Assembly (NCBI RefSeq): GCF_003363015.1
Contig: NZ_QRAP01000005.1
Coordinates: 330,820-394,819 of the forward strand
Length of the DNA stretch: 64,000 nt
Source: Enterobacillus tribolii
GTDB taxonomy: Bacteria > Pseudomonadota > Gammaproteobacteria > Enterobacterales > Enterobacteriaceae
Direction of reading: 5' to 3'
The notes under the pieces are model-generated. The model was not told the origin of the DNA. It was given only the letters and a program-made list of their open reading frames with translations, and did no database searches. Positions 11,183-60,683 of the stretch are shown here, in pieces (within the stretch, counting starts at the first letter, position 1; each line of letters starts with the position of its first letter). The translations under genes were made by a program, and so were the position numbers.

Positions 11183-11185
11183 AAT

Positions 11186-13177: not shown

Positions 13178-13205
13178 CCAATAAAAAAGAATTAATGGAA
13201 AAACC

Positions 13206-41450: not shown

Positions 41451-41738
41451 CTAACTGGAAGTCATCGACGCCAACCGTCCATTATTATCCTGTAAAATAA
41501 AACTGGTACCATAAACACGTACAGCAGGACTAACGTGATTCTTCAGCTTATTCTCTGACTCAAGGAATATGTCGAATGTATATCGTTTTCCAGCTTCAAA
41601 GTGATAGCCATAGGTAGGAATACATTTATCTGAGGACACAGGCACATTAATGCTAAACTTTTTTAAAATGTTCTCTTTATTGCCTACCTCCATAATGATG
41701 AGAGTAACCAGTTTTTCATCATCTTCTGGTTGAACCAA
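41451..41738 (-). CDS. hypothetical small protein / possible gene fragment (low-GC islet)
   Basis: 95-aa ORF initiating at TTG, with an internal ATG (MEVGNKEN...). No recognisable domain. Upstream frames are broken. Confidence 0.25.
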   Translation of the reverse strand: MVQPEDDEKLVTLIIMEVGNKENILKKFSINVPVSSDKCIPTYGYHFEAGKRYTFDIFLESENKLKNHVSPAVRVYGTSFILQDNNGRLASMTSS

Positions 41739-42042
41739 AACACAAACATCATTATTAACAGTAGTTACTTTGGCATCACAATCTTGTTGTAATCAATTGA
41801 GTTACCGTACACAGCCCGGGCCAGAACAATGACCATGGAAGCATTTTTCACCCCATAGATCAATTAGGCATTACTTAAATATAATTTATGAAATCAACAA
41901 CTTTTCGATATTCCCTTTGACGGCATATTTCTTTTCACTCACTGAGTTTTAAGCGTTTCGCCACCGCCCTTTCGGGCGGCAATCAATAAAGCAACAATGC
42001 ACTGAAAACGGAATCGAATGGCCCGTAGCCAGTACCTCCCAA

Positions 42043-43689: not shown

Positions 43690-44763
43690 ATGGCTGCACA
43701 AAACCGTAAACGTCTTCTTCTCATGCTGGTGCTGGCTGCCGTGATCGTCATTGCCATCCTGTCCTGGTGGAGCATGCGTACGCCCGGCCTGCCGGAAGGG
43801 TTCGCCCGCAGTAACGGACGCATTGAGGCCACCGAAATCGATATTTCCACCAAATATGCCGGGCGCATCGACGCCATTCTGGTGCGCGAGGGCGCCTTCG
43901 TGAAGCAGGGAGAAGTGCTGGCGCGTATGGATACGCGGGTACTGAACGAGCAGCGCAATGAAGCGCTGGCGCAAATCAGCGAAGCCCAAAGTATGGTGGC
44001 GACCGCCCGTTCGCTGCTGGCCCAGCGGGAAAGCGAGAAGCTGGCGGCCAACGCCATCGTGAAGCAGCGGGAAGCGGAGCTGAATTCGGCCAGTAAACGC
44101 CTCGCCCGCTCGCAGGCGCTGTCACGCCGCGGCGCCGCCTCTGAGCAGCAGCTGGACGATGACCTGGCCGCAGCGCAAAGCGCCCGTGCGGCGCTGGAGT
44201 CGGCGCGGGCGCAGGTCGCCGCCTCGCAGGCCGCCATTGAGTCCGCCAGAGCAGGCATCATCCAGGCCACCACCCGGGTAGAAGCCGCGCAGGCTACCGA
44301 GCGTCGCCTTCAGGCCGATATCGACGACAGCGATCTTAAAGCGCCGCGCAACGGCCGTATCCAGTACCGCATTGCGGAGCCGGGCGAAGTGCTGGGCGCT
44401 GGCGGCCGCGTGCTGAATATGGTGGATCTCAGCGACGTGTACATGACGTTTTTCCTGCCGACCGCCGATGCCGGTAAGGTCGCGCTCGACAGCGACGTCC
44501 ACATCATCCTGGATGCAGCGCCCGATCTGGTGATCCCGGCCAAAACCAGCTACGTCGCCAGCGTCGCCCAGTTCACGCCGAAAACCGTGGAGACTGACAA
44601 TGAGCGGCTGAAGCTGATGTTCCGCGTCCGGGCGCGCATTCCCCCCGAACTGCTGGAAAAGCATCTGGAATATGTAAAAACCGGCCTGCCCGGCATGGCT
44701 TATGTGCGGATCGACGCCCAGAAATCCTGGCCTGATAACCTGCAAGTGAGGATACCGCAATGA
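43690..44763 (+). CDS. yhiI: HlyD-family membrane fusion protein YhiI
   Basis: 357 aa with an N-terminal TM, coiled-coil and barrel-sandwich regions. The stop overlaps the rbbA start (ATGA), as in the E. coli yhiI-rbbA-yhhJ operon. Confidence 0.8.
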
Positions 44764-47501
44764 CACACGCCCCGATCGTCCGCCTCCGGCAGGTCAGCCA
44801 GCAGTACGGACAAACGCGGGCGCTGCAGGAAATCACGCTGGATATTCCGGCACGCCAGATGATCGGGCTGATCGGCCCGGACGGCGTGGGAAAATCCAGC
44901 CTGCTGTCATTGATCGCCGGCGCGCGCAAAATCCAGAGTGGCGAAGTGTGGGTGCTGGACGGCAACATGGACGACGCCGCGCACCGGCGCGACGTGTGCC
45001 CGCGCATCGCCTACATGCCGCAGGGGTTGGGCAAAAACCTTTACCACACGCTGTCGGTCTTCGAGAACGTTGATTTCTTCGGCCGTCTGTTCGGCCATAA
45101 CAAAGCCGAGCGGGAGGCGCGCATCGACGATCTGCTGCACAGCACCGGGCTGGCGCCGTTTCGCGATCGCCCGGCGGGCAAGCTTTCCGGCGGGATGAAG
45201 CAAAAGCTGGGCCTGTGCTGCGCGTTGATCCACGATCCCGAACTGCTGATCCTGGATGAGCCGACCACCGGGGTTGATCCCCTGTCGCGCGCCCAGTTCT
45301 GGGATCTGATCGACCGCATCCGCGAACGGCAAACCAACATGAGCGTGCTGGTCGCCACCGCCTATATGGAAGAAGCGGAGCGCTTCGACTGGCTGGTGGC
45401 GATGGACGCCGGCAACGTGCTGTCTACCGGCAGCGCCGCCGAACTGCGCGGGCAAACTCACTGCGATACGCTTGAGGAAGCGTTTATCGCCCTGCTGCCG
45501 GAAGAGAAGCGCAGCGGCCATCAGGCGGTGGTGATCCCGCCGCGTGACGCCAGCGACGATGAAACCATCGCCATTGAAGCGCAGGATCTCACTATGCGCT
45601 TTGGTGACTTCGTCGCGGTCGATCACGTTAACTTCCGTATTCCGCGCGGTGAAATCTTCGGCTTTCTCGGCTCTAACGGCTGCGGTAAGTCCACCACCAT
45701 GAAAATGCTCACCGGCCTGTTGCCGGCCAGCGAGGGCAAAGCCTGGCTGTTCGGTCAGGAGGTCGATCCGCGCGATATCGAAACCCGCCGCCGTGTGGGC
45801 TATATGTCGCAGGCATTCTCCCTGTACAGCGAACTGAGCGTGCGGCAAAACCTTGAGCTTCACGCCCGGCTGTTTCACCTGCCGGAGGAGCAGATTCCGG
45901 CGCGCGTGCAGGAAATGAGCGAGCGCTTCATGCTTACCGGGGTGGAAGACGCCATGCCGGAAGCGCTTCCGCTGGGCATCCGCCAGCGTCTGTCGCTGGC
46001 CGTGGCGGTGATTCACCGCCCGGAAATGCTGATTCTCGATGAGCCGACCTCCGGCGTCGATCCCATCGCCCGCGACATGTTCTGGAGCATGATGGTGGAT
46101 CTGTCGCGCCGCGACGGCGTTACCATCTTCATCTCCACCCACTTTATGAACGAGGCCGAGCGCTGCGACCGCATTTCGCTGATGCACGCCGGTAAAGTGC
46201 TCGCCAGCGACACCCCGCACGCGCTGGTAGAGCAAAGCGGCCTGGCGACGCTGGAAGAGGCGTTTATTGCCGCGCTGCGCCAGGCGTCCGGCGACGCGGG
46301 CAACGCGCCGCCGGAACCGCCCGTTATCGCAGAAAACACGCATACGCCGGAGCGGGAACATGCCGGACGCAGGGGCTTCAGCCTGGCGCGCATGTTCAGC
46401 TACAGCCTGCGTGAGTCCCTGGAGCTGCAACGCGATCCGGTGCGTTCCACGCTGGCGTTGCTGGGGACGGTGATCCTGATGTTCATCATGGGCTATGGCA
46501 TCAGTATGGACGTGGAAAACCTGCGCTTTGCGGTGATGGATCGCGATCAAACCGGTACCAGTCAGGCCTATACGCTGAACCTTGCCGGATCGCGCTACTT
46601 TATTGAACAGCCGCCGCTCGCCGATTACAACGAAATGGAACAGCGGCTGCGCAACGGCGAGCTGGCGGTAGCGATCGAGATCCCGCCGAACTTCGCGCGC
46701 GATCTGGCGCGCGGGCATACGGTGAAGATCGGCGTCTGGGTAGACGGCGCCATGCCCAACCGCGCCGAGACGGTACGCGGCTACGTGCAGGCCATGCACA
46801 TGACCTGGCTGACGGAGATGGCGACCCGCCAGACCGGCAGCGTGGCAAACGGCGCGCTGCTCGACATCGAAACCCGCTACCGCTATAACCCGGACGTCAA
46901 AAGCCTGCCCGCCATCGTACCGGCGGTGATCCCGCTGTTGCTGATGATGATCCCGGCGATGCTCAGCGCGCTCAGCGTCGTGCGCGAAAAAGAGCTGGGT
47001 TCCATCATCAATCTGTACGTTACGCCGATCACCCGGGCGGAGTTTATCATCGGCAAACAGCTCCCTTACGTGGTGCTGGGCATGTTTAACTTCTTCCTGC
47101 TGTGCGCCCTGTCGGTGTTCATCTTCGGCGTGGATCATAAAGGCAGCTTCCTGACCCTGACGCTGGCGGCGCTGCTCTACATCACCACCGCGACCGGTAT
47201 GGGGCTGTTGATCTCAACGTTCATGCGCAGCCAGATCGCCGCGATTTTCGGCACCGCGATCATCACCCTGATCCCCGCCGGGCAGTTTTCCGGCATGATC
47301 AATCCGGTATCGTCGCTGGAGGGCATGGGCCGCTGGATCGGCAATATCTACCCGACTACCCACTTCCTGACCATCACCCGCGGAACGTTCTCCAAAGCGC
47401 TGACGCTGGTCGATCTGTACGCTTCGTTTATTCCGTTACTGATCGCCGTGCCGGTGATCGTCGGGCTGAGCGTCATACTGCTGAAGAAACAGGAGGCCTG
47501 A
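44760..47501 (+). CDS. rbbA: ribosome-associated ATPase RbbA (tandem ABC ATPase domains fused to an ABC-2 permease)
   Basis: 913 aa with two Walker A (GPDGVGKSS; GSNGCGKST), two LSGG signatures and a C-terminal 6-TM ABC-2 domain. Confidence 0.85.
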
Positions 47502-48625
47502 TGCGTAAGCTGGGAAATATTTTCAATCTGGGCATCAAAGAACTGCGCAGCCTGTTGGGCGATAAGGCGATGCTGGCGCTGATCGCGTTTTCGTTTACCC
47601 TCTCGGTTTACTCCACGGCGACCGGCGTGCCGGGATCGCTGCACATGGCGCCCATCGCCATCGCCGATCAGGATCAATCCCAGCTTTCCACGCGCATCGT
47701 CAACAGCTTCTACGCGCCCTACTTCATTACGCCGGCGATGATCGATGCAAATCAGATCGATCCCCTGCTCGACGAAGGAAGCTACACCTTTGCGCTGAAT
47801 ATTCCGCCCAACTTCCAGCGCGACGTGCTGGCAGGGCGTCAGCCGGCAATCCAGCTTAACGTGGACGCGACCCGCATGAGCCAGGCTTTCCTCGGCAACA
47901 GCTATATCCAGAACATCATTACCGGAGAGGCCAGCGAATTCGCATCGCGCTTTCGCGCTAACACTGAGCTGCCGGTCGATCTGGAAATCCGCACCCGTTT
48001 TAACCCTAACCTGACGCAGTCATGGTTCGGCGGCGTGATGTCGATTATCGACAACATCACCATGCTGGCGATCATCCTGACCGGCTCGGCGTTAATCCGC
48101 GAGCGGGAGCACGGCACCATTGAGCATTTGCTGGTCATGCCGATTACGCCGTTTGAGATCATGGTGGCGAAGGTGTGGTCGATGGGGCTGGTGGTGCTGG
48201 TGGCTTCCGGGCTGTCGCTGGTGTTCGTCGTTCAGGGGCTGTTGCAGGTGCCGATTGAAGGCTCCGTGCCGCTCTTTATGATGGGCGTGGCGCTGAGCCT
48301 GTTCGCCACCACTTCCATCGGCATTTTTATGGGAACGATCGCCCGCTCAATGCCGCAGTTGGGGCTGCTGACGATCCTGGTGCTGCTGCCGCTGCAAATG
48401 CTGTCCGGCGGCAGTACGCCGCGCGAAAGCATGCCGGAGCTGGTGCAGGATCTGATGCTGACGATGCCGACAACCCATTTCGTCAGCCTGGCGCAGGCGA
48501 TACTTTACCGCGGGGCGGATTTCAGTATCGTCTGGCCACAGTTCGTATATTTGCTGGTGATTGGCGGCAGCTTCTTTTTGATCGCACTGAGCCGGTTCAG
48601 GAAGACCATCGGGACGATGGCGTAG
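47501..48625 (+). CDS. yhhJ: ABC-2 family permease YhhJ
   Basis: 374 aa. The start overlaps the rbbA stop. ABC-2 type membrane domain. Confidence 0.85.
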   Translation: MRKLGNIFNLGIKELRSLLGDKAMLALIAFSFTLSVYSTATGVPGSLHMAPIAIADQDQSQLSTRIVNSFYAPYFITPAMIDANQIDPLLDEGSYTFALNIPPNFQRDVLAGRQPAIQLNVDATRMSQAFLGNSYIQNIITGEASEFASRFRANTELPVDLEIRTRFNPNLTQSWFGGVMSIIDNITMLAIILTGSALIREREHGTIEHLLVMPITPFEIMVAKVWSMGLVVLVASGLSLVFVVQGLLQVPIEGSVPLFMMGVALSLFATTSIGIFMGTIARSMPQLGLLTILVLLPLQMLSGGSTPRESMPELVQDLMLTMPTTHFVSLAQAILYRGADFSIVWPQFVYLLVIGGSFFLIALSRFRKTIGTMA

Positions 48626-48627: not shown

Positions 48628-49191
48628 CTACTCTTCCGTCAGTTCGTCGTACAGGCCACGCAGGCGGGTGCGCAGGTAGAGCACGGCTTTGTGCTTACGT
48701 GACAGCAGCGCCTGCACGCTGGCGCCGGATTCTTCCGCCAGCGCCTTAAAGCTGTAGCCATGCAGCTCGGTCTTTTCGAAAACGTCACGCTGCGCCGCCG
48801 GCAGCTCCGCCAGCGCTTCGTCCAGCTCTTCCCAGATCAGCGCGCTCAGGTACTCTTCCTCCGGCGTTTGCGGCACGCCAAACAGGGTTTCAGCCAGCTC
48901 GTTTTCCGGCGCATCTTCTTCGTCGCCATCTTCGTCATAATAGACGGGCAGCGGCAGCTCGCGCTTTTTCCGCGCCCGATCGGTGATCTCATTGCGCGCG
49001 GCGCGGAACAGCCAGGCGGCGACGTTCTCCACCGGCTGTTCAATCTTCATGAGTTGATAGGTGACTTCCTGCAGGATATCGTCCGCATCATCACGCACCG
49101 CCGTGCGGCCACGGATAAAGGCTTTCAGCCGCGACCGGCAGGCGTTAAGGGCGGACATCACCAGGGAATCGCCTTCCTTACCGACCTTCAT
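48628..49191 (-). CDS. ECF-family RNA polymerase sigma factor
   Basis: Sigma-70 region 2 (DADDILQEVTYQLMK) and region 4 HTH (FKALAEESGASVQALLSRKHKAVLYLR). The ATG at 49191 lies 6 nt after the stop of the upstream His-rich gene. Confidence 0.7.
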   Translation of the reverse strand: MKVGKEGDSLVMSALNACRSRLKAFIRGRTAVRDDADDILQEVTYQLMKIEQPVENVAAWLFRAARNEITDRARKKRELPLPVYYDEDGDEEDAPENELAETLFGVPQTPEEEYLSALIWEELDEALAELPAAQRDVFEKTELHGYSFKALAEESGASVQALLSRKHKAVLYLRTRLRGLYDELTEE

Positions 49192-49196
49192 TACGC

Positions 49197-49688
49197 TCAC
49201 TCTGCTTCCGGCGTTTTCTGTTCGCCGTTTTCCGGCTGACGGCAGCATTCCCGTTCATTCCGCGGGCCGCGACGACCGTCGTGCTCAGGGCGCCCGCAAT
49301 GGCCATGATGACCGTGATGACCGTGATGACCGTGCCGTCCGAATCCGTCGCGCCGCTGGCGGATAAATTCTTCGCGCTCTTCCGGCGTCATGTTCATCCA
49401 GCGCGCATGCATCCGCCGGCGGTCACGCGCCATGCCGAACATGCCCGGACGCATTCCCAGCCCGCCGAACAGAATGCGGCACAGGATCAGCAAACCCAAC
49501 GCCTGCCAGAAACCAATGCTGCTCACGCCGAACAAGGCGGGCAACAACGCATTCCACAGCGACATGACCAACAGGCCCAGCACGACAAACAACACCGCGC
49601 CGATCGCCAGCGGTTTAACCATCGGATGACCGCCGAAGCCATCGTGACCGCGGCCATGACCATGACCGCGCATACCAAATTCTCTCAT
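49197..49688 (-). CDS. His-rich two-TM membrane protein (candidate metal-sensing anti-sigma/regulatory partner of the ECF sigma)
   Basis: ~163 aa from ATG 49688 (AGGAGAG RBS). N-terminal GHGHGRGHDGFGGH, two hydrophobic helices, and a C-terminal GHHGHHGHHGHCG plus CC pair. Translationally coupled to the ECF sigma. Confidence 0.5.
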   Translation of the reverse strand: MREFGMRGHGHGRGHDGFGGHPMVKPLAIGAVLFVVLGLLVMSLWNALLPALFGVSSIGFWQALGLLILCRILFGGLGMRPGMFGMARDRRRMHARWMNMTPEEREEFIRQRRDGFGRHGHHGHHGHHGHCGRPEHDGRRGPRNERECCRQPENGEQKTPEAE

Positions 49689-49927
49689 TTTTTCTCTCCT
49701 CATAGCATAAGCTGATTACGCTTTCTGATGAGGTAGACGAATGAGCGACGGAAATATTGCCGGAAAAATAGAAAATTTTTAGTCGCCGGGGAAATTACGT
49801 CAGGAAACGTGCTCCGCCACTGATATTACGGACGGGGGGAAGCGCGATTAAAAAGCAGGGAGTAATGATAACACGCATGAAAAAGATGGGCGAAATACCC
49901 TCATTCCGCCCACCTCAATAAACCACC

Positions 49928-50662
49928 TTACGCCGTCAACCCGCCATCCAGCACCAGCGTTTGCCCGGTCATATACCGGCTGTCATCGCCGATCAGAAAC
50001 GCCGTTGCGCGCGCCACTTCCAGCGGGGTGCCGAGCCGTTTCAGCGGAACCTGTTTGCGCATCGCCTCCAGCTTGGCTGGCGGCATGGCTTCGGTCATCT
50101 CACTTTCGATGATGCCCGGCGCCAGGCAGTTAACGCGCAGGCCGAAACGGCCCAGCTCCGGCGCCAGCGAACGGCACAGGCCGATCATCGCCGCCTTGGT
50201 CGCGCCGTATGCAGTCTGCCCGATGTTACCCTTGATGCCGGTGACCGAAGACATCAGCACCAGCGCGCCGTCGCCGTTCATGATCATCGCCGGCAGCAGG
50301 TGCCGGTTCCAGTAAAACACCGCGTTCAGGTTGGTATTGATAACCTGTTGCCAGGTTTCCGCCGTTTGGTGGATGTGCAGGCCGTCCTGCGTAATGCCGG
50401 CGTTGTGGATCACGGCATGCGGCGCGCCGTGTTTTTCCAGCAGTTGCTGCGCCAACACATTAACCTGCTCTTCATTGCTGCCGTCGCACGGGTAAGCCTC
50501 TACCCATCCCGGCAGGCCGGCACAGGCGTCAACGACCGCCTGGCTGGCTTCACCGGTGTTACGGCAGGTGAACACCACGTTCCAGTCACGCGCCAGCTCT
50601 TCCACCAGCGCGCGACCGATCCCCCGGCTACCGCCGGTAATCAGCAGCCATTTTCTGTTCAT
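49928..50662 (-). CDS. SDR-family 3-oxoacyl-ACP reductase (FabG-like)
   Basis: ~245 aa from MNRKWLLITGGSRGIGRAL (TGxxxGIG Rossmann motif). Catalytic Y..K (YGATKAA) and S (SSVTG). Confidence 0.75.
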   Translation of the reverse strand: MNRKWLLITGGSRGIGRALVEELARDWNVVFTCRNTGEASQAVVDACAGLPGWVEAYPCDGSNEEQVNVLAQQLLEKHGAPHAVIHNAGITQDGLHIHQTAETWQQVINTNLNAVFYWNRHLLPAMIMNGDGALVLMSSVTGIKGNIGQTAYGATKAAMIGLCRSLAPELGRFGLRVNCLAPGIIESEMTEAMPPAKLEAMRKQVPLKRLGTPLEVARATAFLIGDDSRYMTGQTLVLDGGLTA

Positions 50663-50919
50663 GGCGCTGACTTCTGCTGTTGATCCGCCAGATGCTGGCA
50701 CAGTTCGCCCAGCGTCATTTCCGGGTTCTTGGTAAACATTTCCGCGTCGATGGTGACGCTGAACTCACGCTTGGCCAATACCATCAGTTCAACGTAGTCC
50801 AGGCTGTCGAGCTTCAGCTGGTGGAGAGGCATTTCTGCAGAAAGCTCATCCATCTCCATATCTTTAGCATCGCAGATCATTTCGCAGACTTTTTCATATA
50901 CGGTTTCATACTGGCTCAT
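50659..50919 (-). CDS. acyl carrier protein
   Basis: 86 aa with a phosphopantetheine attachment site (LKLDSLDYVEL, DSL motif). Confidence 0.75.
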   Translation of the reverse strand: MSQYETVYEKVCEMICDAKDMEMDELSAEMPLHQLKLDSLDYVELMVLAKREFSVTIDAEMFTKNPEMTLGELCQHLADQQQKSAP

Positions 50920-50937: not shown

Positions 50938-51759
50938 TTATTGTTGATATGAATTGACCTGGGCCGGCAACGTTTTCAATGTTACCGCGGTGGACAGCAA
51001 CGGCTGTTCATCCGACCAGGCCTGAATCACTATGCTGAGAACAAACCCACTTTCCCCTGAACCTGTTACTAAGGTGGGCTGAATCGCACAGTGCATACCC
51101 GAACCTGCGTGGAAATCGGCATCGGGCGAGAATAAACATGCATTAAAATGAACATCATGGTGCGTCTGTACTACCGGAACGCGGCCAAATACGTCGATCA
51201 GTGCATTGGCCCGTAATTGCGGAAAAACTTCTTTTACCATCCGCATGGTGTCCGGCGCTTCCACAATGCGCTGGAACAGCACGGCGTCCAGAAAACTCCA
51301 CAACCGGGCCGGTTCCTGCGCCGGTAGCGGAAAACGATGGCTCAGCGTACGTAGATCGTCCGAGGAATAGACGAGCACGTTGTCCGCGGGCGCGATCGTC
51401 AGCGGGGCGGCGGCGGTCAGCTTGGCGGAAAAGCAAACACTGTCGCTCTGCTCATCAACCAGCGTTCCCCTGACTTTCGTCCCGTCCGGCTGGCCGGTCA
51501 GCGACATCTGATAAGACTTATGGCACATCAGCGGCTGGCGCAGGCGTGCGCTGAACATGTAGAACTCCGCCTGCGGCGATGCCTGCAGCAACGCCGCGCT
51601 AAGATATTGTTTCATGTCCAGCAAAGCACGCATGCCATGTACGCTGAGATCGTCGCCGCCCAGCGCGCGGGCGCGCTCCAGATCGAAATGGATCGGGTTG
51701 TAGTCGCCGGAAAAGGCGGCCCACTGTTCGGCGTCACGTACGGTATACGTCAGGATCAT
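50938..51759 (-). CDS. MaoC-like double-hotdog (3R)-hydroxyacyl-ACP dehydratase
   Basis: 273 aa. The N-terminal hotdog carries FSGDYNPIHFD (MaoC dehydratase signature). A second hotdog-like half follows. Confidence 0.65.
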   Translation of the reverse strand: MILTYTVRDAEQWAAFSGDYNPIHFDLERARALGGDDLSVHGMRALLDMKQYLSAALLQASPQAEFYMFSARLRQPLMCHKSYQMSLTGQPDGTKVRGTLVDEQSDSVCFSAKLTAAAPLTIAPADNVLVYSSDDLRTLSHRFPLPAQEPARLWSFLDAVLFQRIVEAPDTMRMVKEVFPQLRANALIDVFGRVPVVQTHHDVHFNACLFSPDADFHAGSGMHCAIQPTLVTGSGESGFVLSIVIQAWSDEQPLLSTAVTLKTLPAQVNSYQQ

Positions 51760-53015
51760 GATCCGCTCCGGCTGATGATCAACGCCGCGTTAGCCCCGCC
51801 GAAGCCGAAGCTGAGATTCAGCGTATTATCCAGCTTGCCCGCCCGGTGCCCCTCGGCGACATAGTCCAGATCGCACGCCGGATCGGCGTTCTTCAGGTTG
51901 CAGGTAGCCGGCATCATCTGATGCTCCAGCGCCTGCAAACAGACGATGGACTCGAAGCTGCCCGCCGCCGCGATCAGGTGACCGGAATAAGACTTGGTGC
52001 TGGAGATCGGAATACGGTATGCCTGCTCGCCCAGCGCGATCTTCACCGCTTCGGTTTCGTTCAGGTCGTTGAGCGGCGTGGACGTACCGTGCGCGTTGAT
52101 ATAATCAATATCCTGCGCCGTGAATCCCGCCTGCTTCAGCGCCCGCTCGATGGTTTTGACGCGCGCCACCTTGTCGCCCGCCGGGGCGGTAAAGTCGAAG
52201 GCGTCGGAATAGTTTCCATAGCCTTTGATTTCGCCCAGGATGGTCGCGCCGCGCGCCAACGCTGCTTCGCGCTCTTCCAGGCACAGCACGGCGGCGCCTT
52301 CAGACAACACGAAACCGTTGCGATCGGTGCTGAACGGGCAGCAGGCACGGGTGACCTCTTCTTTTTCACTGGCCAGCGCCCCCAGAACATCGATGTTCCA
52401 AACCGATGCGTCGCTGCGCAGGGATTCACCCGCGCCCGCCAGCATCATGGACGCCCGGCCGCTGCGGATGATTTCAAATGCATCGCCAATGGCGATGGTG
52501 CCGGTCGCGCAGGCGGCAATCGGGGAGTTCTGGTAACCGCGCAGGCCCCAGAACAGGCTGCACGCCGCGGTGGCGACGTTCGGCATCGAGAAGAAGCAGC
52601 CGAAAGGCGAACCGACGCCGGAACGCTTGTATTCATCATAAAATTCGTAAGTTTCATCCTGCCCGGCCCAGCCGGTGCCGATGATGGCGCCGCACTCCAG
52701 CAGATCGTAATGATCCTTCGGATGCCCTTCGCCGAAGGCCATCGTCATGGCTTCACGCGCGGCGGCCAGCGACAGGCGCCCATGGCGCGGCAGGCGGCGG
52801 CGAATGGCGGCCGGTACGCCTTTCAGGCTGGGTTCTTCATCAATCAGGCCGAAGAAACGGGCCGAAATCCCTTCATCGGCACGGTCGACAAAACGGTATC
52901 CCAGGCGATACGCCATGATGGAATCCCAGCTTTCCCCGGCATTGCCTCCCAATGGGGTGACGGCACCATAACCTGTGACGACAACCCGACGCGGCATATT
53001 ATTATCGTTATCCAT
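51756..53015 (-). CDS. beta-ketoacyl-ACP synthase (FabB/FabF-like KAS)
   Basis: 419 aa with N-terminal VVVTGYGAVTPLG, an active-site Cys region and C-terminal His/His/Gly-rich motifs (GHLIAAAG; FGFGGANA). Confidence 0.8.
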   Translation of the reverse strand: MDNDNNMPRRVVVTGYGAVTPLGGNAGESWDSIMAYRLGYRFVDRADEGISARFFGLIDEEPSLKGVPAAIRRRLPRHGRLSLAAAREAMTMAFGEGHPKDHYDLLECGAIIGTGWAGQDETYEFYDEYKRSGVGSPFGCFFSMPNVATAACSLFWGLRGYQNSPIAACATGTIAIGDAFEIIRSGRASMMLAGAGESLRSDASVWNIDVLGALASEKEEVTRACCPFSTDRNGFVLSEGAAVLCLEEREAALARGATILGEIKGYGNYSDAFDFTAPAGDKVARVKTIERALKQAGFTAQDIDYINAHGTSTPLNDLNETEAVKIALGEQAYRIPISSTKSYSGHLIAAAGSFESIVCLQALEHQMMPATCNLKNADPACDLDYVAEGHRAGKLDNTLNLSFGFGGANAALIISRSGS

Positions 53016-54408
53016 TATTCATCCCTCCGAGGTCTTTTTCGTTATCGACACCCCCACCCAACGCCAGCCAAAGCTTCATCGTGGCGTACAAGTAGTTGTA
53101 TTGCATGGTCAACAAATTGTTCTCACTACTAAGCAGGGAATCCTGCGCATCCAGTAAGGTCTGGAAAGAAACGGCACCGGCCTGATATTGGCTGGTGACC
53201 AGCGCCAGACGGCGCTGGCTGAGCTCCAGGTCGCGCATCAGGCTGGCTTTTTGGCTTTCCGCATTCAGGCGTTGCGCCATGGCGTTATCCACGTCGGAAA
53301 GCGCGCTGTAGGCCGTGCTGCGGAACTTCACCGCGGCCTGTTGGACGTTCAGGTCGGACTGTTCGATCGTCAGCTGAACCGTATTCCACTGAATAAAAGG
53401 CAACGCGACGGCGGCGCCCAACGTCCGCACCGGGTTGGTGAACCATTGGGAAAATACGGAGCTACCGGCGCTTGCCCCGGCAGACAGCGACAGCGAAGGG
53501 TAGAAACTCAGTTTCGCCGCATCCTTACCCGCCAGCGCGGCGCGCAGACGCCACTCTTCGGCCTGCACGTCAGGGCGATGACCGATAACCTGCAACGGAA
53601 CGCGATCGGCAATGGCGATGCTCTGCATGAAGTCGAGCGTGCTCAGCTCATCCTGACGCTGGGAGGGGGGGCGGTTAAACAGGATCGCCATCGCGTTACG
53701 CGCTTCTTCCCGCTGTTCTTTCAGATCGCGCAGGCGGTTACGTTTACTGATGACGGACTGCTCCGACTGCAGCAGATCCACCTGCCCCACGTTGCCGGCT
53801 TCATAGCGCGAATTCACCATATCGAGCGTCTTTTCCGCGATCTCCAGGCTCTTTTCCTGGTTGGCGATCTGCTGATTGAGGCTGCCAATCTGCCAGTAAA
53901 GCTGCGCGGTAGTCCCGATCAGCGACAGGGCGGTAGCCTGGCGGTCGAACTCCGTCGCCTTCACTTTCCAGGCGGACTGCTCGCGCTCACGCGCCAGCTT
54001 GCCCCACAGATCCAGCTCATAGCTCAGGGAGATCGACGAACTGTAGGTTTCCTTCGGATCCGTATTGTTGTTCAGATTCTTGGTGTTGCTGGCGGAACCA
54101 CTCACGCTCACGTTCGGCGTCAGGTTGGTGTTGGTCAGCCCGGCCGCCACGCGCGCCAGTTGCAGTTGAATGCCGGCCGCCGCCAAATCGTTGTTGGTCG
54201 CCAGCATCTGGCTGATGATGCGTGAGAGCTGGGGATCGTTGAAGTTGTCCCACCAGTGAGGCGTATTTTTCAGGAACGTCGTACCGGTGCTGTCCTGCTG
54301 CTGCCAGGTGTCCGGCACCGACAGTTCCGGGCGCTGATATTCCGTTTTCGTCAGCGCGCCGCATCCGGTAAGCAGCAGGGTTAACAACGCTATCTGATAT
54401 CTTTTCAT
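53008..54408 (-). CDS. outer-membrane efflux lipoprotein (NodT/OprM family OMF)
   Basis: 466 aa with a lipobox (LLTGC) and the two coiled-coil/beta-barrel repeats typical of TolC-family OMFs. Confidence 0.8.
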   Translation of the reverse strand: MKRYQIALLTLLLTGCGALTKTEYQRPELSVPDTWQQQDSTGTTFLKNTPHWWDNFNDPQLSRIISQMLATNNDLAAAGIQLQLARVAAGLTNTNLTPNVSVSGSASNTKNLNNNTDPKETYSSSISLSYELDLWGKLAREREQSAWKVKATEFDRQATALSLIGTTAQLYWQIGSLNQQIANQEKSLEIAEKTLDMVNSRYEAGNVGQVDLLQSEQSVISKRNRLRDLKEQREEARNAMAILFNRPPSQRQDELSTLDFMQSIAIADRVPLQVIGHRPDVQAEEWRLRAALAGKDAAKLSFYPSLSLSAGASAGSSVFSQWFTNPVRTLGAAVALPFIQWNTVQLTIEQSDLNVQQAAVKFRSTAYSALSDVDNAMAQRLNAESQKASLMRDLELSQRRLALVTSQYQAGAVSFQTLLDAQDSLLSSENNLLTMQYNYLYATMKLWLALGGGVDNEKDLGGMNNG

Positions 54409-54410
54409 AT

Positions 54411-56369
54411 TTACTCGCGTGCCAGCGCCTCCGTTGGGTTAAGACGAGCGGCGTTCCTTGCCGGGAAGAACCCGAAGCACAAACCGATCAGCGCTGAGAA
54501 ACCGCACGACAACAGGACCGGCAGCAGGGTGAACACCATCGAGAACTCCTGGGTAACGAAGGAGAACAGGACCCCGAATATCCAGGAGCCGGCGATCCCC
54601 ATCAGTCCGCCCAAGACACAAATCACGATCGCTTCAATCAGGAACTGCAACATAATGTCCGCCGGCCGCGCGCCGACCGAAAGACGGATGCCGATCTCGT
54701 GGGTACGCTCCGTGACCGAAACCAGCATGATGTTCATTACCCCGACGCCCCCCACCAGCAGGGAGATCGCCGCGATGGCGGTGATCAACAGCGACATGGA
54801 GTCAGACGTTTTTTGCAGCGCCTTCGCCAGTTGATCGTCGGTCTGCGTGAAAAAGTCACGCTTCTCGTGTACCTGCTCCAGCAGCAATTCGACCCGGCGC
54901 TGCGCCTCCGACAGAGACACACCCTCATGGAAACGCAGCGTCAGTGATTCGATCGGCATAGTGCCGGACATGCGTTCCATCAGCGAGGTATACGGGATCC
55001 AGCCGCCCATCAGGCCGCCGATCACCTTAGGTCCTTTCTTGCTCGCCACGCCGACCACGCGGAACGGAACCCCCGACAGCAGGATTATTTCGCCGTTCGG
55101 ATCTTCCCCCTCCTCAAACAGGATCGACTTCGCCAGTTGATCGATGATGATGACCGGCTCGCGGTTCTCTACGTCTGCACCGGAGAAAGGCGCGCCGCTG
55201 CTGAAGTTGACGTCCTGCACGCGGAAGTAATCGTCGTTCACGCCGGAAAGCTGCATCATCGTCATCGGGATGTTGCCGCGGATGGCCTGCGCATTTTTAC
55301 CGACCACCGGCGATACGCTGTCAACGTAGGGCTGTTTTTGCAGTAGCTCTACGTCGGCCACCGACAGCGCATTGGCGTATTCGGGGCTTACCCGCCCCAT
55401 GCTCAGGCCGGGGCGGACTTCGAGCGTACTGTTACCCAGCTTGCCGATTTCCTGCATGATGCTCTGACGTGCGCCTTCCCCTACCGCCATGGACGAAACC
55501 ACCGATGAGATGCCGATGATGATCCCCAGCATGGAGAGGAAAGCACGGGTACGGTGCCCCAGCAGCGAGCGCCACGCCATGCGTACCGCTTCCGTCACGC
55601 TCAGCCAGAACGGCGGGCGCCCGTTGGAGTCCACCTTGGGCAAACCGCCGGAAGCGACGTCTTCGCGGTTGGACTCATTGACACGGTCGGCGATGATCTC
55701 GCCGTCGCTGATTTCGATGATGCGCTCGGCCTGATTGGCGATTTCCCGATCGTGGGTCACGATGATGATGGTGTGCCCGGCCTGATGCAGGGAGTGCAGA
55801 ATGCCCATCAGCTCCTGGCCGCTGGCGCGGTCCAGCGCGCCGGTCGGTTCGTCCGCCAGAATGATGCTGGCGCCGTTCATCAGCGCGCGCGAGATACTGA
55901 CGCGCTGCTGCTGGCCGCCGGAAAGCTGCGCCGGCTTATAGCCCATACGATGGCCCAGGCCCAGGCGCTTCAGCAGGTATTCAGCGCGGCTCTGCCGTTC
56001 GGCAACCGGCATCGCGGTATAAAGCGAGGGGATCGCCACGTTTTCCGTCGCCGTCAGGTACGGCATCAGGTGATAACGCTGGAAAATAAAGCCGATGTAC
56101 TGGCTGCGCAACTGCGCCAGTTGTTCGCTGTCGGCCACGTGCGCAGGCACGTCGTGGATAAACATCTCGCCCTGCGTCGGCTTGTCCAGGCAGCCGATGA
56201 TGTTCATCAGCGTAGACTTGCCGGAGCCGGAAGCCCCGACGATCGCCACCATCTCTCCCTCATGGATCTTGAGGGAGATATCCTTCAGCACCGCCACGGT
56301 CTCATTCCCCGACGGGAAGTGCCGGTAAATACCATTTAATTCAATCAGCGGCGAGGTGTCTTTCGTCAT
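54411..56369 (-). CDS. MacB-type ABC transporter (N-terminal ATPase fused to an FtsX-like permease)
   Basis: 652 aa with Walker A (GASGSGKST), signature ([15 protein letters not shown]), Walker B ([11 protein letters not shown]), then 4 TM segments with a large periplasmic loop. Confidence 0.85.
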
Positions 56370-56371
56370 AG

Positions 56372-57538
56372 CTACTTCCTGGCCATCGCGATGGTGCTGC
56401 CAATAACGACCTCTTCACCTTCCTGCAGGCCTTCCTTCACTTCGGCATACAGGCGATCATTTACGCCGGTTTTTATCCAGCGTGTTTCCACGCTATCGCC
56501 TTTTTTCACCCGCACCTGATAGGTGTTTTGATCTTTGCGCTGCCCCAGCGCGGTCATCGGCACTCTCGGCACGCCTTTAGCCTGCTCCGTGATGATGAAA
56601 ACCTGGGCTGTCATGTAAGTCCGCAGCAGGTGCTCGCTGTTGTCGATGTCGAACACGCCGTTGTAATAAACCGCGCTTTGCTGCTGGGAGGAGCTCATGG
56701 AAGAACTTTGCTCCATCAGCGCTTCATCCGGCGCGGATTGAATATTGCCCATCGTGCCTTCGTAACGGCGCTTGGGATCGGCCAGCACGTAAAACCACAG
56801 AGGCTGCCCCGGCTGTACCTTCAGGATATCGGCTTCTGAAATCCGGGTGTGGACCGTCATGGTGTCCATGTCCGCCAGCACCAGAATGGTCGGCGCGGTT
56901 TGCGAGGAAACGACCGTCTGACCTTCTTTGGTGACGATGCCCAGCACTTCGCCGTCCATCGGCGCCAGAATCTGGGTATAGCCGACGTTGGCCTTCGCTT
57001 TCTCCACCGCGGTTTCCGACTGGGTGATCTGCGCTTCATTCATGCGCAGTTGTTCAAGCTGGGCGTTATATTGCGCCTGAGCTTTCTCCAGATCGCTCCG
57101 CACGCCGGCGCCATCGCGGAACATTCTTTGCTGACGCTTCAATTCCTGCTGATACTGCTTAATCAATACGCGGGTGGAAGCGCGCTGCGCCAGCGAGCTG
57201 ACCAGCTGAGCTTCGGAGGTGCGCAGTTCGTTTTGTTGCAGCGTGGGGTCGATTTCGGCCAGCAGATCCCCTTTCTTGACCCGGTCGCCCTGCTTCACGT
57301 ACAGCTTCTTCAACTGCCCGTTAACCTGGGCGCCGACGCTGACCTGCAGCGACGGTTTGATAATGCCGGTGGACAAGACGGTCTTTTCAATATCGCCAAT
57401 GGATACCGGTTCCGTCAGCAGAGAGGCGGTTTCTTTATTTCCTCCGCTGAACATCTGGCTGATGGCTACCGCCACCAGCGCGATCACGGCCAGTGCCAGG
57501 AGAACAACCTTTTTGCGCTTTCCGCTCCATTTCGCCAT
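56372..57538 (-). CDS. MacA-type periplasmic adaptor (HlyD/RND MFP family)
   Basis: 388 aa with an N-terminal TM anchor, lipoyl/coiled-coil hairpin and beta-barrel regions. Immediately upstream of MacB. Confidence 0.8.
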   Translation of the reverse strand: MAKWSGKRKKVVLLALAVIALVAVAISQMFSGGNKETASLLTEPVSIGDIEKTVLSTGIIKPSLQVSVGAQVNGQLKKLYVKQGDRVKKGDLLAEIDPTLQQNELRTSEAQLVSSLAQRASTRVLIKQYQQELKRQQRMFRDGAGVRSDLEKAQAQYNAQLEQLRMNEAQITQSETAVEKAKANVGYTQILAPMDGEVLGIVTKEGQTVVSSQTAPTILVLADMDTMTVHTRISEADILKVQPGQPLWFYVLADPKRRYEGTMGNIQSAPDEALMEQSSSMSSSQQQSAVYYNGVFDIDNSEHLLRTYMTAQVFIITEQAKGVPRVPMTALGQRKDQNTYQVRVKKGDSVETRWIKTGVNDRLYAEVKEGLQEGEEVVIGSTIAMARK

Positions 57539-57550
57539 TTCAATGCATCC

Positions 57551-59710
57551 TTAATACGCAGCGGTCGCGACGAGTGGCTGCTCCACAGACGGAGTTGCCG
57601 AAGAGGCTTTTTCAAGCCGGCCATTTTCCATGCGATACACCTGATCAAACATCGCCAGCACCGTTTCGCTGTGCGTCACGGTAATCAAGGTCTTGCCGTA
57701 TTCGCGGCAGTGCTCCAGCAGGGTTTTGATCACCTGCTGAGCGGTAACTTCGTCCAGGTTGGCCGTCGGTTCGTCCAGCACCAGAACCGGTTTGTCGCTG
57801 TACATCGCCCTGGCCAGCAGCAAGCGCTGGCGTTGCCCCAGCGACAGCGCGGCATGGCTTTCACGGATCAGGGCGTTTTGCCCGCCGGGCAGCTTCGAGA
57901 CGACCGACGTCAGATTCAGCCCTTCCAGCGAGGCATCTACGCGCAGCTGTTTCTTCTCATCGAAGTCGGCGTCAAACAGCGTAATGTTTTGCAGCACGGA
58001 GGCGTTGAACAGAATGTCCTCCTGGCTTTGCAGGAAAAACAGGGAGTGAGCCTGACGGGCGTTAATCAGCACGTCGTCCACCGCGATCTCGCCAGCGGTC
58101 GGCGTAATCAGCCCGGCCATGATGCGCAGCAGGGTACTTTTACCGGCGCCGGATTCACCCACGATGGCCGTACTCTGGCCGCGGCGCAGGGACAACGATA
58201 AGTCGCTCAGCACCATCTGCTGCGGCTCATAGCCGAAGCAAATGCCGCGGTAGTCCAGCTGGCGCTCGAAGTGCACCACGGGCACCGGCGTCGCATCCCG
58301 CTCCTGTGCGTTTTCATCGTCGGTTTTGACCGGGAACAGATCCTTGGCGCGGGTATCAATAACGTGGATCTGGTTCTTCTGCAAAACAGAGAAAAAGATT
58401 CGGGTGATATAGGAGGTGAAGATCTGCCGGATAAAGTTATAGGCAAAGAATTCACCCAGGCTGATCACCCCGTCTTTCAGCATCGGCAGAGAAAGGAACA
58501 TGAACAGCACCATCTCAATGCTGCCAATCATCTGGTAAATGCTGTTTTTAACCTGCTCGTAAATCCGTTGCTTTTGCAGCGTGGTGAACAATGCCCAGGT
58601 ATAGCGGGCGAAATTGCTCTTGCGCTGGCTGTCCAGCCCTGCGGATTTGATGGTGGAAAAGCCCTGAATGGTTTCCAGAATATAGTCGTTCTGATCGGCG
58701 CTTTTCACCTGCAGCTGCTGGGTGTAGTAACGGTCGCGGTAAATCGCCCAGACGCTGACCAGCCCCATCAGGCTTACGCCGACGGCAGACACGGCCGCCA
58801 GTACCGGGCTGATGTAACACATCAGCGCCAGCGCAATAACGCCGATGATCCAGTCGGTGCGCAGGCCGTTATCCAGTTCAATCTTACGCGCCGCGGCCAT
58901 CTGCCAGGCTGAGAACCGGCTGAATATTTCACCGGGCGAGCGTTTGTCGAAAAAGCGCAGTTGGTTGCTCAGCAGGCGGGAAAATCCGGCCGTGCTGTTC
59001 AGAATGACGAACCGTTTGACGAACCGCTCAGTCAGTATGCGCAGCCCCATCGCCAAACCGGTGGAAGCGACAAACGCCAGGAAAAAGTAGAAATACGGGA
59101 AGTCAGTATTCCCGGCCCCCGAGAACACCTGGTTAATGGCCGAGCTGACCATGGTCGGCATGATGAACAGCGACAGGGAAATGATAAACGCGCAGATCAT
59201 CAGCCAGTAAATACCGGGAAGCTTTGAGGTTTCCTTCAGGCTCATGCTTTCCATGGCGCGGAAACGCTGGCTCTCCTTACGGGCCTTCAGCGTGGCTTCA
59301 TCGATAGTGGCTTCTTCGTCCAGCACCAGGGCATAACCGCTGATTTGCGCCTTCAGCGCATCCAGCGGCAGCAGCTGCTGCCCGATGGCCGGGTTCATCA
59401 CGCAAACGTAGTTTCCTTTACGGTAGGCCAGCACGACGTAATGGCTGGCGCCGTAGTGCAAAATCGCCGGCAGCGGCAGCGCATCGAGTTCGTTAAACGC
59501 GAACGCGACGGGGTAAACCGGGATCTTCAGATCTTCGAGAATGGAACACAGCGTCGCCAACGACGTGCCGTGCTCGGATGCGGGGTAACTCTCCCTCAGT
59601 TCGCGCAGCGGAACGTGCACGCCCTGCGTTTCCGCCAGCATCGAAATGCATGCCAGACCGCATTCATTGGTTTCTCCCTGAAATACCTGAGAAGGAATGA
59701 TCTTTTCCAT
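57551..59710 (-). CDS. peptidase-C39-domain ABC transporter (double-glycine leader-cleaving bacteriocin exporter, CvaB/LagD type)
   Basis: 719 aa. N-terminal C39 domain with catalytic Cys (QGETNECGLACI) and His (GASHYVVL). 6-TM domain. C-terminal NBD (GESGAGKST; LSLGQRQRLLLARA; VLVLDEPTANLD). Confidence 0.85.
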   Translation of the reverse strand: MEKIIPSQVFQGETNECGLACISMLAETQGVHVPLRELRESYPASEHGTSLATLCSILEDLKIPVYPVAFAFNELDALPLPAILHYGASHYVVLAYRKGNYVCVMNPAIGQQLLPLDALKAQISGYALVLDEEATIDEATLKARKESQRFRAMESMSLKETSKLPGIYWLMICAFIISLSLFIMPTMVSSAINQVFSGAGNTDFPYFYFFLAFVASTGLAMGLRILTERFVKRFVILNSTAGFSRLLSNQLRFFDKRSPGEIFSRFSAWQMAAARKIELDNGLRTDWIIGVIALALMCYISPVLAAVSAVGVSLMGLVSVWAIYRDRYYTQQLQVKSADQNDYILETIQGFSTIKSAGLDSQRKSNFARYTWALFTTLQKQRIYEQVKNSIYQMIGSIEMVLFMFLSLPMLKDGVISLGEFFAYNFIRQIFTSYITRIFFSVLQKNQIHVIDTRAKDLFPVKTDDENAQERDATPVPVVHFERQLDYRGICFGYEPQQMVLSDLSLSLRRGQSTAIVGESGAGKSTLLRIMAGLITPTAGEIAVDDVLINARQAHSLFFLQSQEDILFNASVLQNITLFDADFDEKKQLRVDASLEGLNLTSVVSKLPGGQNALIRESHAALSLGQRQRLLLARAMYSDKPVLVLDEPTANLDEVTAQQVIKTLLEHCREYGKTLITVTHSETVLAMFDQVYRMENGRLEKASSATPSVEQPLVATAAY

Positions 59711-59732: not shown

Positions 59733-60683
59733 CTATTCATTGATGAAATACAATGAATGCGCATGCCACAATAACCAGTCGGCCGGATGGCGGGTTATTG
59801 ACTCTTCAATAATGACCGGCATTTTCTTTTTCAACTCGCGGGCCGCAACCGGCGGCTCAATGTGAATTTTGATGCCTTTGTCGTAATACAGGTTGTAAAA
59901 CACCACCTGCGCCGACAGCACCCTGGCCAGCCGGATAATGCCGCTGTGCAAATGCGCAGGGCGGTTGAACAGGGTACAGTTCAGCTTGCCGGCCCGGGTT
60001 TCGTTGGTATCCAGGGTATAGTCCGGCGTGATGTCGGGAAAAATCATGATATTGCGCTGGTGGTCGGCGGCTTCCATGATGGAATCCATCAGGTTGCCGG
60101 CAATCATCCGGTTGTCACTGTGGATTGAGCAGTAAGTGAGGTTGACCCCGCCCATGGCGCGATCCTGCTCCTGATAAATCTCCGCGCTGGAAGACACCAC
60201 CACCGTGGCCTTCCCCGGATAAACCATGCTGCCGACGATGCCGGCCAGAATGTCCGATACCATGTGCATCGGCGCCAGGATCACCGGGGAGCCGTTCTGA
60301 TGCAGCGGTTCTACGATCTGATTAAGCTGATCGGCGCACTGCTTCAGTTCAGACTGGATCTGAGCGCTTTGCCCGTAGGTTGCGGCCAGGTCCAGCAGTT
60401 GCCGGCGCTGGGACACCCACGTATGACGCAACGGGGCCGCATCCGGCCCCAGCAAGCATCTTTTATTCTCTTCGGCCACCAGCGCCAGGTTGCGCCGGCG
60501 GCGCCCTGTCAGCCGCAGCCCGCGGCTGATGTGCGCCAGCAGAAACCCGGCGCGGTAGTCCAGGTGACGAAAGAGAAAACGGGCGGTTTTGCCGTGCCAC
60601 TCACGTGACTTGCCGACCTGTTCAGCCAGTTTCCCGGTGAAGTTTTTCCAGCTGAGATACAGCCACACGGCAAAGAAACGCAT
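59733..60683 (-). CDS. LpxL/HtrB-family (lipid A late acyltransferase-like) ACP-dependent acyltransferase
   Basis: 316 aa. Motif blocks parallel LpxL: HMVSDILAG (LpxL HFMSLELGG, HX4D/E region), FPDITPDY (LpxL APDQDY), and C-terminal PADWLLWHAHSLYF (LpxL PEQYLWIHRRFK). Confidence 0.6.
   Translation of the reverse strand: MRFFAVWLYLSWKNFTGKLAEQVGKSREWHGKTARFLFRHLDYRAGFLLAHISRGLRLTGRRRRNLALVAEENKRCLLGPDAAPLRHTWVSQRRQLLDLAATYGQSAQIQSELKQCADQLNQIVEPLHQNGSPVILAPMHMVSDILAGIVGSMVYPGKATVVVSSSAEIYQEQDRAMGGVNLTYCSIHSDNRMIAGNLMDSIMEAADHQRNIMIFPDITPDYTLDTNETRAGKLNCTLFNRPAHLHSGIIRLARVLSAQVVFYNLYYDKGIKIHIEPPVAARELKKKMPVIIEESITRHPADWLLWHAHSLYFINE

Follow-up and report, generated by a model that had tools for sequence, protein, structure and literature searches.

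To our knowledge, peptidase-containing ABC transporters (PCATs) of Gram-negative bacteria have been described as parts of one-step type I systems, in which they act with an adaptor of the CvaA/HlyD type. The heat-stable enterotoxin II of E. coli (STII or STb), a 48-amino-acid (aa) peptide with four cysteines in two disulfides, is exported by a different sequence of machines: Sec, DsbA and then MacAB-TolC. In the pyoverdine pathway of Pseudomonas an acylated precursor is carried by PvdE to the periplasm, undergoes maturation and leaves through PvdRT-OpmQ. Here we describe an 11-gene cluster of Enterobacillus tribolii in which a PCAT, a DsbA paralogue and a MacA-MacB pump with its own outer-membrane factor (OMF) are encoded together with a small DUF4762 peptide and a set of fatty-acid genes. 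The window, i.e. the whole stretch of DNA analysed, comprises 64,000 nucleotides (nt) of contig NZ_QRAP01000005.1 (positions 330,820 to 394,819), and coordinates below refer to it unless a locus is named. The PCAT encoded in it is 100% identical to an NCBI protein of E. tribolii, and two Logan contigs contain the same DNA.

Comparison with described systems revealed partial likenesses. Class II microcin systems (CvaA-CvaB-TolC, MchEF) share with the DUF4762 cluster the double-glycine leader and the C39 PCAT in Enterobacterales. They differ in that the cluster has Asn in the peptidase triad, lacks both a CvaA-type adaptor and an adjacent immunity gene, and carries MacAB-OMF, DsbA and lipid genes instead. 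STII resembles the DUF4762 peptide in size and cysteine count, and the DsbA-then-MacAB logic is common to both; however, its first step is Sec rather than a leader-cleaving PCAT, whereas the DUF4762 cluster encodes its own, dedicated DsbA and outer-membrane channel and has lipid genes as well. The two peptides have no sequence similarity. Pyoverdine is expelled by PvdRT-OpmQ, a MacAB-type pump with its own OMF (PMC8277102), and there too an inner-membrane ABC exporter followed by a MacAB-type pump and OMF is encoded within the biosynthetic locus. Unlike the DUF4762 product, pyoverdine is non-ribosomal, PvdE has no peptidase domain, and PvdQ removes the acyl chain, while no acylase is encoded in the DUF4762 cluster. 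Full-text searches of the available literature turned up neither a description of the cluster or of DUF4762 nor a pairing of a PCAT with MacAB. The components are all of known kinds; what is new is their combination and the two-step route that it implies for a double-glycine peptide.

Organization of the cluster

Four tightly packed open reading frames (ORFs) on the minus strand fill positions 53008-59710. They encode a PCAT of 719 aa (57551..59710), a MacA-type periplasmic adaptor of 388 aa with one N-terminal transmembrane (TM) helix (56372..57538), a MacB-type (type VII) ABC pump of 652 aa (54411..56369) and a NodT-family OMF lipoprotein of 466 aa (53008..54408), separated by 12, 2 and 2 nt. 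The ORF list and the Pfam and NCBIfam matches thus place the export genes exactly where a preliminary description of this DNA, made from the letters alone, had put them. The quartet is the middle of an 11-gene unit of 11.8 kb, all on the minus strand, in the order DUF4762 precursor, DsbA, acyltransferase, PCAT, MacA, MacB, OMF, beta-ketoacyl-acyl carrier protein synthase (KS), dehydratase (DH), acyl carrier protein (ACP) and 3-oxoacyl-ACP reductase (KR). Consecutive genes are 0 to 22 nt apart or overlap by 4 to 8 nt, the exception being a 215-nt spacer after the precursor gene. The domain E-values on the long ORFs are far beyond chance.

The C39 exporter

The PCAT consists of a C39 domain (Pfam Peptidase_C39, 6e-24), a six-TM exporter domain (ABC_membrane, 1.9e-12) and a nucleotide-binding domain (NBD; ABC_tran, 3e-27). 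Gln11, Cys17 and His90 of the C39 domain align with the catalytic residues of LahT150 (6MPZ) and PCAT1 (4RY2). The third position of the triad, which is Asp in PCAT1 and ComA, is Asn106. Of the 119 PCAT orthologues in the alignment, all have His90 and Asn106, and 118 have Gln11 and Cys17 (the other row is gapped there). Since Cys-His-Asn is the triad of papain, we take the domain to be active; Asn106 is a hallmark of this PCAT lineage. The catalytic Cys and His noted in the preliminary description are therefore kept, in an active site that is intact with a conserved Asp-to-Asn change. The NBD likewise retains its motifs, which are conserved among the 119 orthologues (Walker A GESGAGKST, a signature variant LSLGQ, Walker B VLVLDEPT and the H-loop THS).

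The protein is about 25% identical to CvaB/MchF and 27% identical to the CvaB-like PCAT of a contrasting locus described below. It falls below every NCBIfam equivalog cut-off, the best score being that of NHLM_micro_ABC1 (275 bits against a required 853). By these sequence comparisons the cluster exporter forms a separate PCAT lineage. Membership in the CvaB/MchF microcin exporter family is ruled out by the identity of about 25% and the lack of CvaA. The 'RaxB' labels attached to JGI homologues are automatic names.

The MacA-MacB-OMF pump

The adaptor matches NCBIfam MacA (1.5e-86) and is 36% identical over its full length to MacA of E. coli K-12. No significant likeness to CvaA was found by BLASTP (E=0.079), and the NCBIfam model type_I_hlyD gave 63.8 bits, short of its cut-off of 208.65. 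The pump protein is 48% identical over its full length to E. coli MacB, matches PDB entry 5NIK with E=2e-186 and has the expected architecture of N-terminal NBD, periplasmic core domain and FtsX-type TM domain (Pfam ABC_tran, MacB_PCD and FtsX). Neither protein reaches the NCBIfam equivalog cut-off of its housekeeping counterpart, MacA or MacB (733 against 966 for MacB); the cluster MacB therefore belongs to a paralogous subfamily. The OMF, which has OEP domains, passes NCBIfam outer_NodT (256.7 bits, cut-off 210) and fails the type I TolC model (83 bits, cut-off 225); it starts with a lipobox, LLTGC. Family scores and full-length alignments accordingly bear out the tripartite MacA-MacB-NodT pump of the preliminary description, as well as its dedicated OMF, a NodT-type lipoprotein whose gene follows that of MacB after 2 nt. 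E. coli macAB differs in having no operon-encoded OMF. Pumps of the MacB type load their substrates not from the cytoplasm but on the periplasmic side, either out of the periplasm itself or out of the outer leaflet (5NIK; PMC8277102).

Conservation of the 11-gene unit

Gene order was found to be identical in every sufficiently complete related locus that we retrieved; these loci number more than 30 and represent about ten genera. Scanning genomes with the PCAT yielded 24 orthologous loci (Pluralibacter, many Serratia species, Ewingella, Dryocola and Buttiauxella), and the order from precursor to KR is the same in the 20 of these that are complete and in several truncated ones. The same 11-gene order is present in Yersinia mollaretii, Atlantibacter hermannii and Rahnella sikkimica, and the cluster also occurs in Klebsiella michiganensis, Pantoea and others. 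Starting from the peptide, four divergent DUF4762 members led to five loci (L034-L037, L039) with the same cluster as far as the contigs reach. The genes flanking the cluster vary between genera; the 11 genes do not.

In all orthologous loci the MacAB-OMF genes lie between those of the PCAT and the fatty-acid enzymes. When the 20 complete loci are compared in pairs, the identities of all ten proteins track those of the PCAT, with r = 0.88-0.96. Serratia fonticola strains GTA-SR07 (L018, L020, L024) and RP0009 (L007, L017, L019) have three complete paralogous clusters each. Every copy has its own MacAB-OMF and its own type of core peptide, and MacB identity between paralogues is 87-88%. Because the copies within this species differ in core peptide type, the cluster family is diversifying within one species. 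We conclude that MacAB-OMF, duplicated and co-diverging with the peptide genes, is an integral, co-inherited part of the peptide cluster. The preliminary description had named, as evidence to the contrary, orthologous loci in which MacAB-OMF is a free-standing operon with peptide genes inserted; none of the orthologous loci has this arrangement.

Three further genes were considered as core parts of the unit and rejected. The coding region for an extracytoplasmic function (ECF)-type sigma factor and a 168-aa ORF without Pfam match (48628-49703, minus strand; the 168-aa ORF at 49197-49703) lies directly downstream of the KR gene, and these genes are not conserved beside the cluster outside Enterobacillus; they may constitute a lineage-specific cluster regulator. 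An FKBP gene found near the cluster accompanies it only in some lineages. On a 353-kb plasmid of Chimaeribacter arupi (NZ_CP119396.1, 85139-111248; L031) a decayed copy of the cluster was observed, with frameshifts in the acyltransferase and PCAT genes and no recognizable DsbA or DUF4762 precursor. This decayed plasmid copy indicates that the cluster can be plasmid-borne and can be lost.

Precursor peptide and DsbA paralogue

The first gene of the unit (61580..61774, minus strand), 1.9 kb upstream of the PCAT gene, encodes a 64-aa precursor matching DUF4762 (Pfam E=3.9e-10). The first 15 aa form a double-glycine leader, MKKINMIEAMQVVGG, and the other 49 the core (CEDVC...DCNLG). The consensus for such leaders is a hydrophobic residue at -12, Glu at -8, Val or Ile at -4 and Gly-Gly; the precursor has Ile, Glu and Val at these positions, followed by Gly-Gly. 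The substrate for C39 cleavage that the preliminary description proposed is thus present, with cleavage after Gly-Gly predicted. The core contains five cysteines, four of them invariant in the family, and an invariant Lys in the motif C-x-D-K-x-G. Its calculated monoisotopic mass without modification is 5042.37 Da, which two disulfides would lower by 4.03 Da.

A word-seeded homology search with the 64-aa precursor returned only seven close relatives and was uninformative. An exhaustive profile search of 1.84 billion representatives retrieved 35 DUF4762 clusters at 50% identity, all sharing the leader MKK[IL]N..EA..[IV][IV]GG, the four invariant Cys and the invariant Lys (C-x-D-K-x-G). One DUF4762 gene precedes that of DsbA in 22 loci; a metagenomic locus (L036, 41-1910) has three tandem precursor-like genes (65, 65 and 70 aa) at this place. 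A regular-expression scan of the whole window for further double-glycine peptides found none, but it missed the real precursor too and is therefore uninformative. No conserved small ORF that could serve as an adjacent immunity gene was found within the 11-gene unit. An AlphaFold2 model of the core has a three-stranded sheet (pLDDT about 80); a fold search with the peptide model against the PDB gave no significant match (best E=0.73). Lipoprotein-type processing between Gly-Gly and Cys (a lipobox-like VGG/C) was considered and rejected, as the leader lacks a hydrophobic Sec/Lsp signal and most orthologues have the first Cys at +2 or not at all.

The spacer between precursor and DsbA genes ranges from 66 to 266 nt across loci and is occupied by a hairpin, which is predicted to be strong in all 19 loci checked and differs in sequence between them. 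In E. tribolii it is a 16-bp stem-loop (61488..61526, minus strand) between the precursor stop and the DsbA start. An Rfam scan of the leader region found nothing at gathering score. The stem-loop probably acts as a partial terminator or mRNA stabilizer that uncouples the level of the precursor from that of the machinery, and it fits a processing or attenuation element setting the ratio of the two.

The second gene (60684..61364, minus strand) encodes a DsbA-like thiol:disulfide oxidoreductase of 226 aa (Pfam DSBA, 7.5e-12). It has an N-terminal hydrophobic anchor (topology judged by eye), a CHYC active site and a Thr-cisPro loop. Residues C73, H74, C76, T190 and P191 are invariant in 25 sequences.

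Acyltransferase and fatty-acid genes

The third gene (59733..60683, minus strand) encodes a 316-aa protein which we assign, from PF03279 (Lip_A_acyltrans) and from an AlphaFold2 model searched with Foldseek, to the LpxL/LpxM/PatA superfamily of acyltransferases (LPLAT, lysophospholipid acyltransferase type). The model (pLDDT 80, pTM 0.80) matches PatA and LpxM with a Foldseek probability of 1.0, E ~1e-8 and a target-normalized TM-score of at most 0.67. An N-terminal hydrophobic helix is present, as in LpxL, and H140...D144 and FPDITPD are invariant. At E up to 0.001 we found 148 homologues, and all those with an organism name belong to Enterobacterales. The NCBI label 'ABC transporter', which this family bears in many genomes, is a propagated misannotation.

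The last four genes of the unit, also on the minus strand, encode a FabF/FabB-like elongating KS of 419 aa (51756..53015; Cys169, His309), a MaoC-like (R)-specific dehydratase of 273 aa with the hydratase-2 motif D19-x-N-P-x-H24 (50938..51759), a dedicated ACP of 86 aa with a DSL motif (Ser39; 50659..50919) and a FabG-like KR of 244 aa with a Ser-Tyr-Lys triad (49928..50662), the last gene of the conserved unit. The KR gene is counted here from its ATG at 50662, position 50701 being the start of the longest ORF. All catalytic motifs of the four proteins are intact. Precursor, acyltransferase and the dedicated KS, DH, ACP and KR are thus genetically linked, and by analogy the acyltransferase together with its dedicated ACP, KS, KR and DH suggests that one special acyl chain is built and transferred.

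A similar kit exists in Rhizobium, where the acpXL-fabZXL-fabF2XL-fabF1XL-lpxXL module builds the special acyl chain of lipid A. That module, too, combines a dedicated ACP, KS and dehydratase with an LpxL-family acyltransferase; it differs in that the acceptor is lipid A and that peptide, PCAT and pump genes are absent. The lipopeptides among RiPPs (peptides made on the ribosome and modified after translation), namely selidamides, lipolanthines, goadvionins and lipoavitides, the last being fatty acid synthase/RiPP hybrids from Streptomyces, likewise derive from a precursor gene that is clustered with an acyltransferase gene and with genes for fatty-acid or polyketide synthesis. GNAT-type enzymes serve as acyltransferases in the RiPP lipopeptides known so far (PMC13647313, published in 2026), whereas the DUF4762 cluster encodes an LPLAT (LpxL/PatA)-type enzyme, and acylation of its peptide is putative. 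The known examples come from cyanobacteria, alpha-proteobacteria and actinomycetes, none of them reported with MacAB-OMF.

A DUF4762 locus with CvaAB

One locus, L038 of Serratia sp. L9 (CP192591.1, about 1.75 Mb; 9680-14075), is a classical class II microcin-type locus. A DUF4762 peptide and two glycine-rich double-glycine peptides are encoded there beside CvaA- and CvaB-like genes (43% and 54% identity, respectively, the CvaB homologue having Asp in the triad), and no DsbA, acyltransferase, MacAB-OMF or fab genes are present in this locus. The same strain has a full 11-gene cluster elsewhere (L025). A CvaA-type adaptor with a PCAT was also seen in L032. The gene set of L038 indicates that DUF4762 peptides are of a microcin-like family and able to leave by type I secretion in one step, and the contrast between the two kinds of locus indicates that the CvaA-type adaptor and the set of MacAB-OMF, DsbA and lipid genes occur as alternatives.

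Export model and alternative explanations

We lean, with reservations, towards export in two steps: transport to the periplasm by the PCAT, oxidation by the DsbA paralogue and expulsion by MacAB-OMF. The 64-aa precursor would be recognized in the cytoplasm through its double-glycine leader. At the inner-membrane face it might be acylated by the LpxL/PatA-like enzyme using cluster-made acyl-ACP, the candidate acceptor being the invariant Lys of C-x-D-K-x-G. The PCAT would then cut after Gly-Gly and, lacking an adaptor of the CvaA/HlyD type, would take the 49-aa core no further than across the inner membrane. In the periplasm the membrane-anchored DsbA paralogue would make two disulfides from the four invariant cysteines, and the folded product would then be driven out through the outer membrane by MacB, MacA and the dedicated NodT-type channel; this pump may, in addition, keep the periplasm of the producer clear. 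We infer a periplasmic intermediate from the DsbA paralogue, the missing type I adaptor and the conserved synteny, and likewise infer that MacAB-OMF acts on the peptide, that the peptide is acylated and where, and that it has biological activity. A sequential model is the most economical one because a PCAT without its own adaptor is encoded with a private periplasmic oxidase beside a four-cysteine peptide. LolCDE and DevBCA-HgdD, the latter exporting heterocyst glycolipids, belong to the MacB type as well and draw lipidic cargo out of the inner membrane's outer leaflet; they differ in that their cargo is a glycolipid or lipoprotein and that no peptidase-ABC step comes first. If the peptide is acylated, a comparable action of the cluster pump is plausible by analogy, and MacB might, speculatively, extract a membrane-embedded lipopeptide in much the same way.

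Several observations weigh against this model. The PCAT could in principle dock on MacA and the OMF, or on an unlinked adaptor and TolC. MacAB is not intrinsically required, since the peptide of L038 is found with CvaAB. DsbA paralogues also occur inside fimbrial operons (SrgA, BcfH), and as such an operon usually adjoins the cluster, its DsbA could serve pilins, which weakens the argument drawn from this gene. By itself the core peptide is acidic, with a charge of about -4, and has no obvious amphipathic character; an amphipathic product would rest on the putative acylation. The acyltransferase passes its Pfam model marginally (22.7 bits, cut-off 22.3) and has H-x3-D instead of the canonical H-x4-D/E, and its acceptor could be a lipid.

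The first of these objections leads to an explanation that we consider unlikely, namely that the peptide is exported in one step by the PCAT with MacA and the NodT channel (or with an unlinked adaptor and TolC), while MacB serves mainly in producer immunity, sharing adaptor and channel and pumping re-entering peptide out of the periplasm. Immunity conferred by ABC pumps is common for bacteriocins, no immunity gene is conserved within the 11-gene unit, and the DUF4762 family is exported in one step in L038. However, the adaptor is full-length and MacA-like with no detectable similarity to CvaA, and MacA is built to dock, through its membrane-proximal domain, on the periplasmic domain of MacB (structures 5NIK/5NIL), a domain that PCATs lack. 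A dedicated periplasmic DsbA would, moreover, be idle if the peptide bypassed the periplasm. Alternatively, the cluster could make two products, MacAB-OMF exporting a lipid or acylated small molecule built by KS, DH, ACP, KR and the acyltransferase, and the PCAT taking the peptide no further than the periplasm or envelope, in which it would act, possibly with the neighbouring fimbriae. This would agree with the adjacency of pump and fatty-acid genes, those of OMF and KS overlapping by 8 nt, with the usual role of the acyltransferase family in acylating lipids (lipid A by LpxL/LpxM, phosphatidylinositol mannosides by PatA), and with the chaperone-usher operons adjoining the cluster in most lineages. 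Yet no full cluster has precursor, DsbA, acyltransferase and PCAT without MacAB-OMF and the fab genes, and the sole DUF4762 locus without MacAB lacks the lipid genes and has a full type I system, which indicates that lipid genes and pump travel with the peptide; we regard two separate products as improbable. The explanation to which we give hardly any credence is that MacAB-OMF is an independent drug or stress efflux operon beside inserted peptide genes. MacB and MacA are clear homologues of the macrolide pump of E. coli, but both score under the housekeeping equivalog cut-offs, and no orthologous locus has MacAB-OMF without flanking peptide and fab genes. The trio lies mid-unit, is triplicated with the unit in S. 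fonticola and co-diverges with it, and the flanks differ between genera while the 11 genes are constant. We reject a stand-alone drug pump on the grounds of synteny, co-divergence and whole-cluster paralogy.

Fimbrial neighbourhood and other features of the window

In most lineages the cluster and a chaperone-usher fimbrial operon lie on the same strand, about 0.1-1.7 kb apart (loci L004, L006, L007, L009, L012, L015-L018, L021-L025, L034, L035 and L039-L042). Often the operon opens with genes for FimB/E-like tyrosine recombinases (one or two, 182-202 aa in length). It is located downstream of KR in Serratia, Rahnella, Dryocola, Buttiauxella and Ewingella and upstream of the precursor in Yersinia, Atlantibacter and three metagenomic contigs; in Atlantibacter the last fimbrial gene and the precursor start are 117 nt apart. 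Loci without a fimbrial neighbour have instead a gene for a TPS-domain protein (L008, L011) or OprD and YbfN (L019, L020). The arrangement suggests co-regulation with phase-variable fimbriae or a shared role in colonization, and the product may be a colonization factor instead of a bacteriocin.

In E. tribolii the genes upstream of the cluster are those for a fimbrial subunit, YuaE and a coiled-coil FKBP protein (62607-64000 and beyond; L001 17-7104). The last of these, on the minus strand and continuing past the window (L001 3025-7104), encodes a very large protein of 1359 aa with tandem repeats of ~45 aa (QQ..TESQKKAEEL..) and C-terminal FKBP_N and FKBP_C domains (Mip/FkpA-like). FKBP_N plus FKBP_C homologues are encoded beside the Pluralibacter cluster and, in L034, within the fimbrial operon. 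A 750-aa ORF elsewhere in the window (17371-19623, plus strand) is 27% identical to a fimbrial usher, which points to a second chaperone-usher system about 30 kb from the cluster.

Unrelated to the cluster are three plus-strand genes at 43690-48625 for an HlyD-family adaptor (357 aa), a fused double-ABC plus ABC-2 protein (913 aa) and an ABC-2 permease (374 aa); by their architecture we take them to resemble E. coli yhiI-rbbA-yhhJ. A sharp dip in G+C content (0.41 versus about 0.59) was observed at 40001-42000. It contains a 330-aa ORF without Pfam match (40262-41254, minus strand), and the region may be foreign DNA.

Implications

A more far-reaching interpretation, which we offer as a tentative possibility, is that DUF4762 clusters represent a new Gram-negative class of ribosomal lipopeptides coupled to phase-variable chaperone-usher fimbriae. 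The product would be a beta-sheet peptide of ~48 aa with two disulfides, acylated by an LpxL/PatA-type (non-GNAT) enzyme using cluster-made acyl-ACP; a stand-alone PCAT would flip and trim it, and the dedicated MacAB-OMF would extract it from the inner membrane and eject it. The fimbrial coupling suggests in this case a role in surface colonization, instead of or besides that of a bacteriocin. If the peptide is acylated, it would provide the first known case of an LPLAT-family enzyme lipidating a RiPP, and as the pathway is native to Enterobacterales it would be easy to move into E. coli.

The two-step hypothesis itself is directly testable, because the cluster is compact and broadly distributed and the CvaAB locus provides a natural control. 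If true, it would define a second, two-step route for double-glycine peptides in which a PCAT is tied to MacAB-OMF and a private DsbA, and it would provide a native, genetically defined peptide substrate for MacB-type pumps, which the field mostly lacks.

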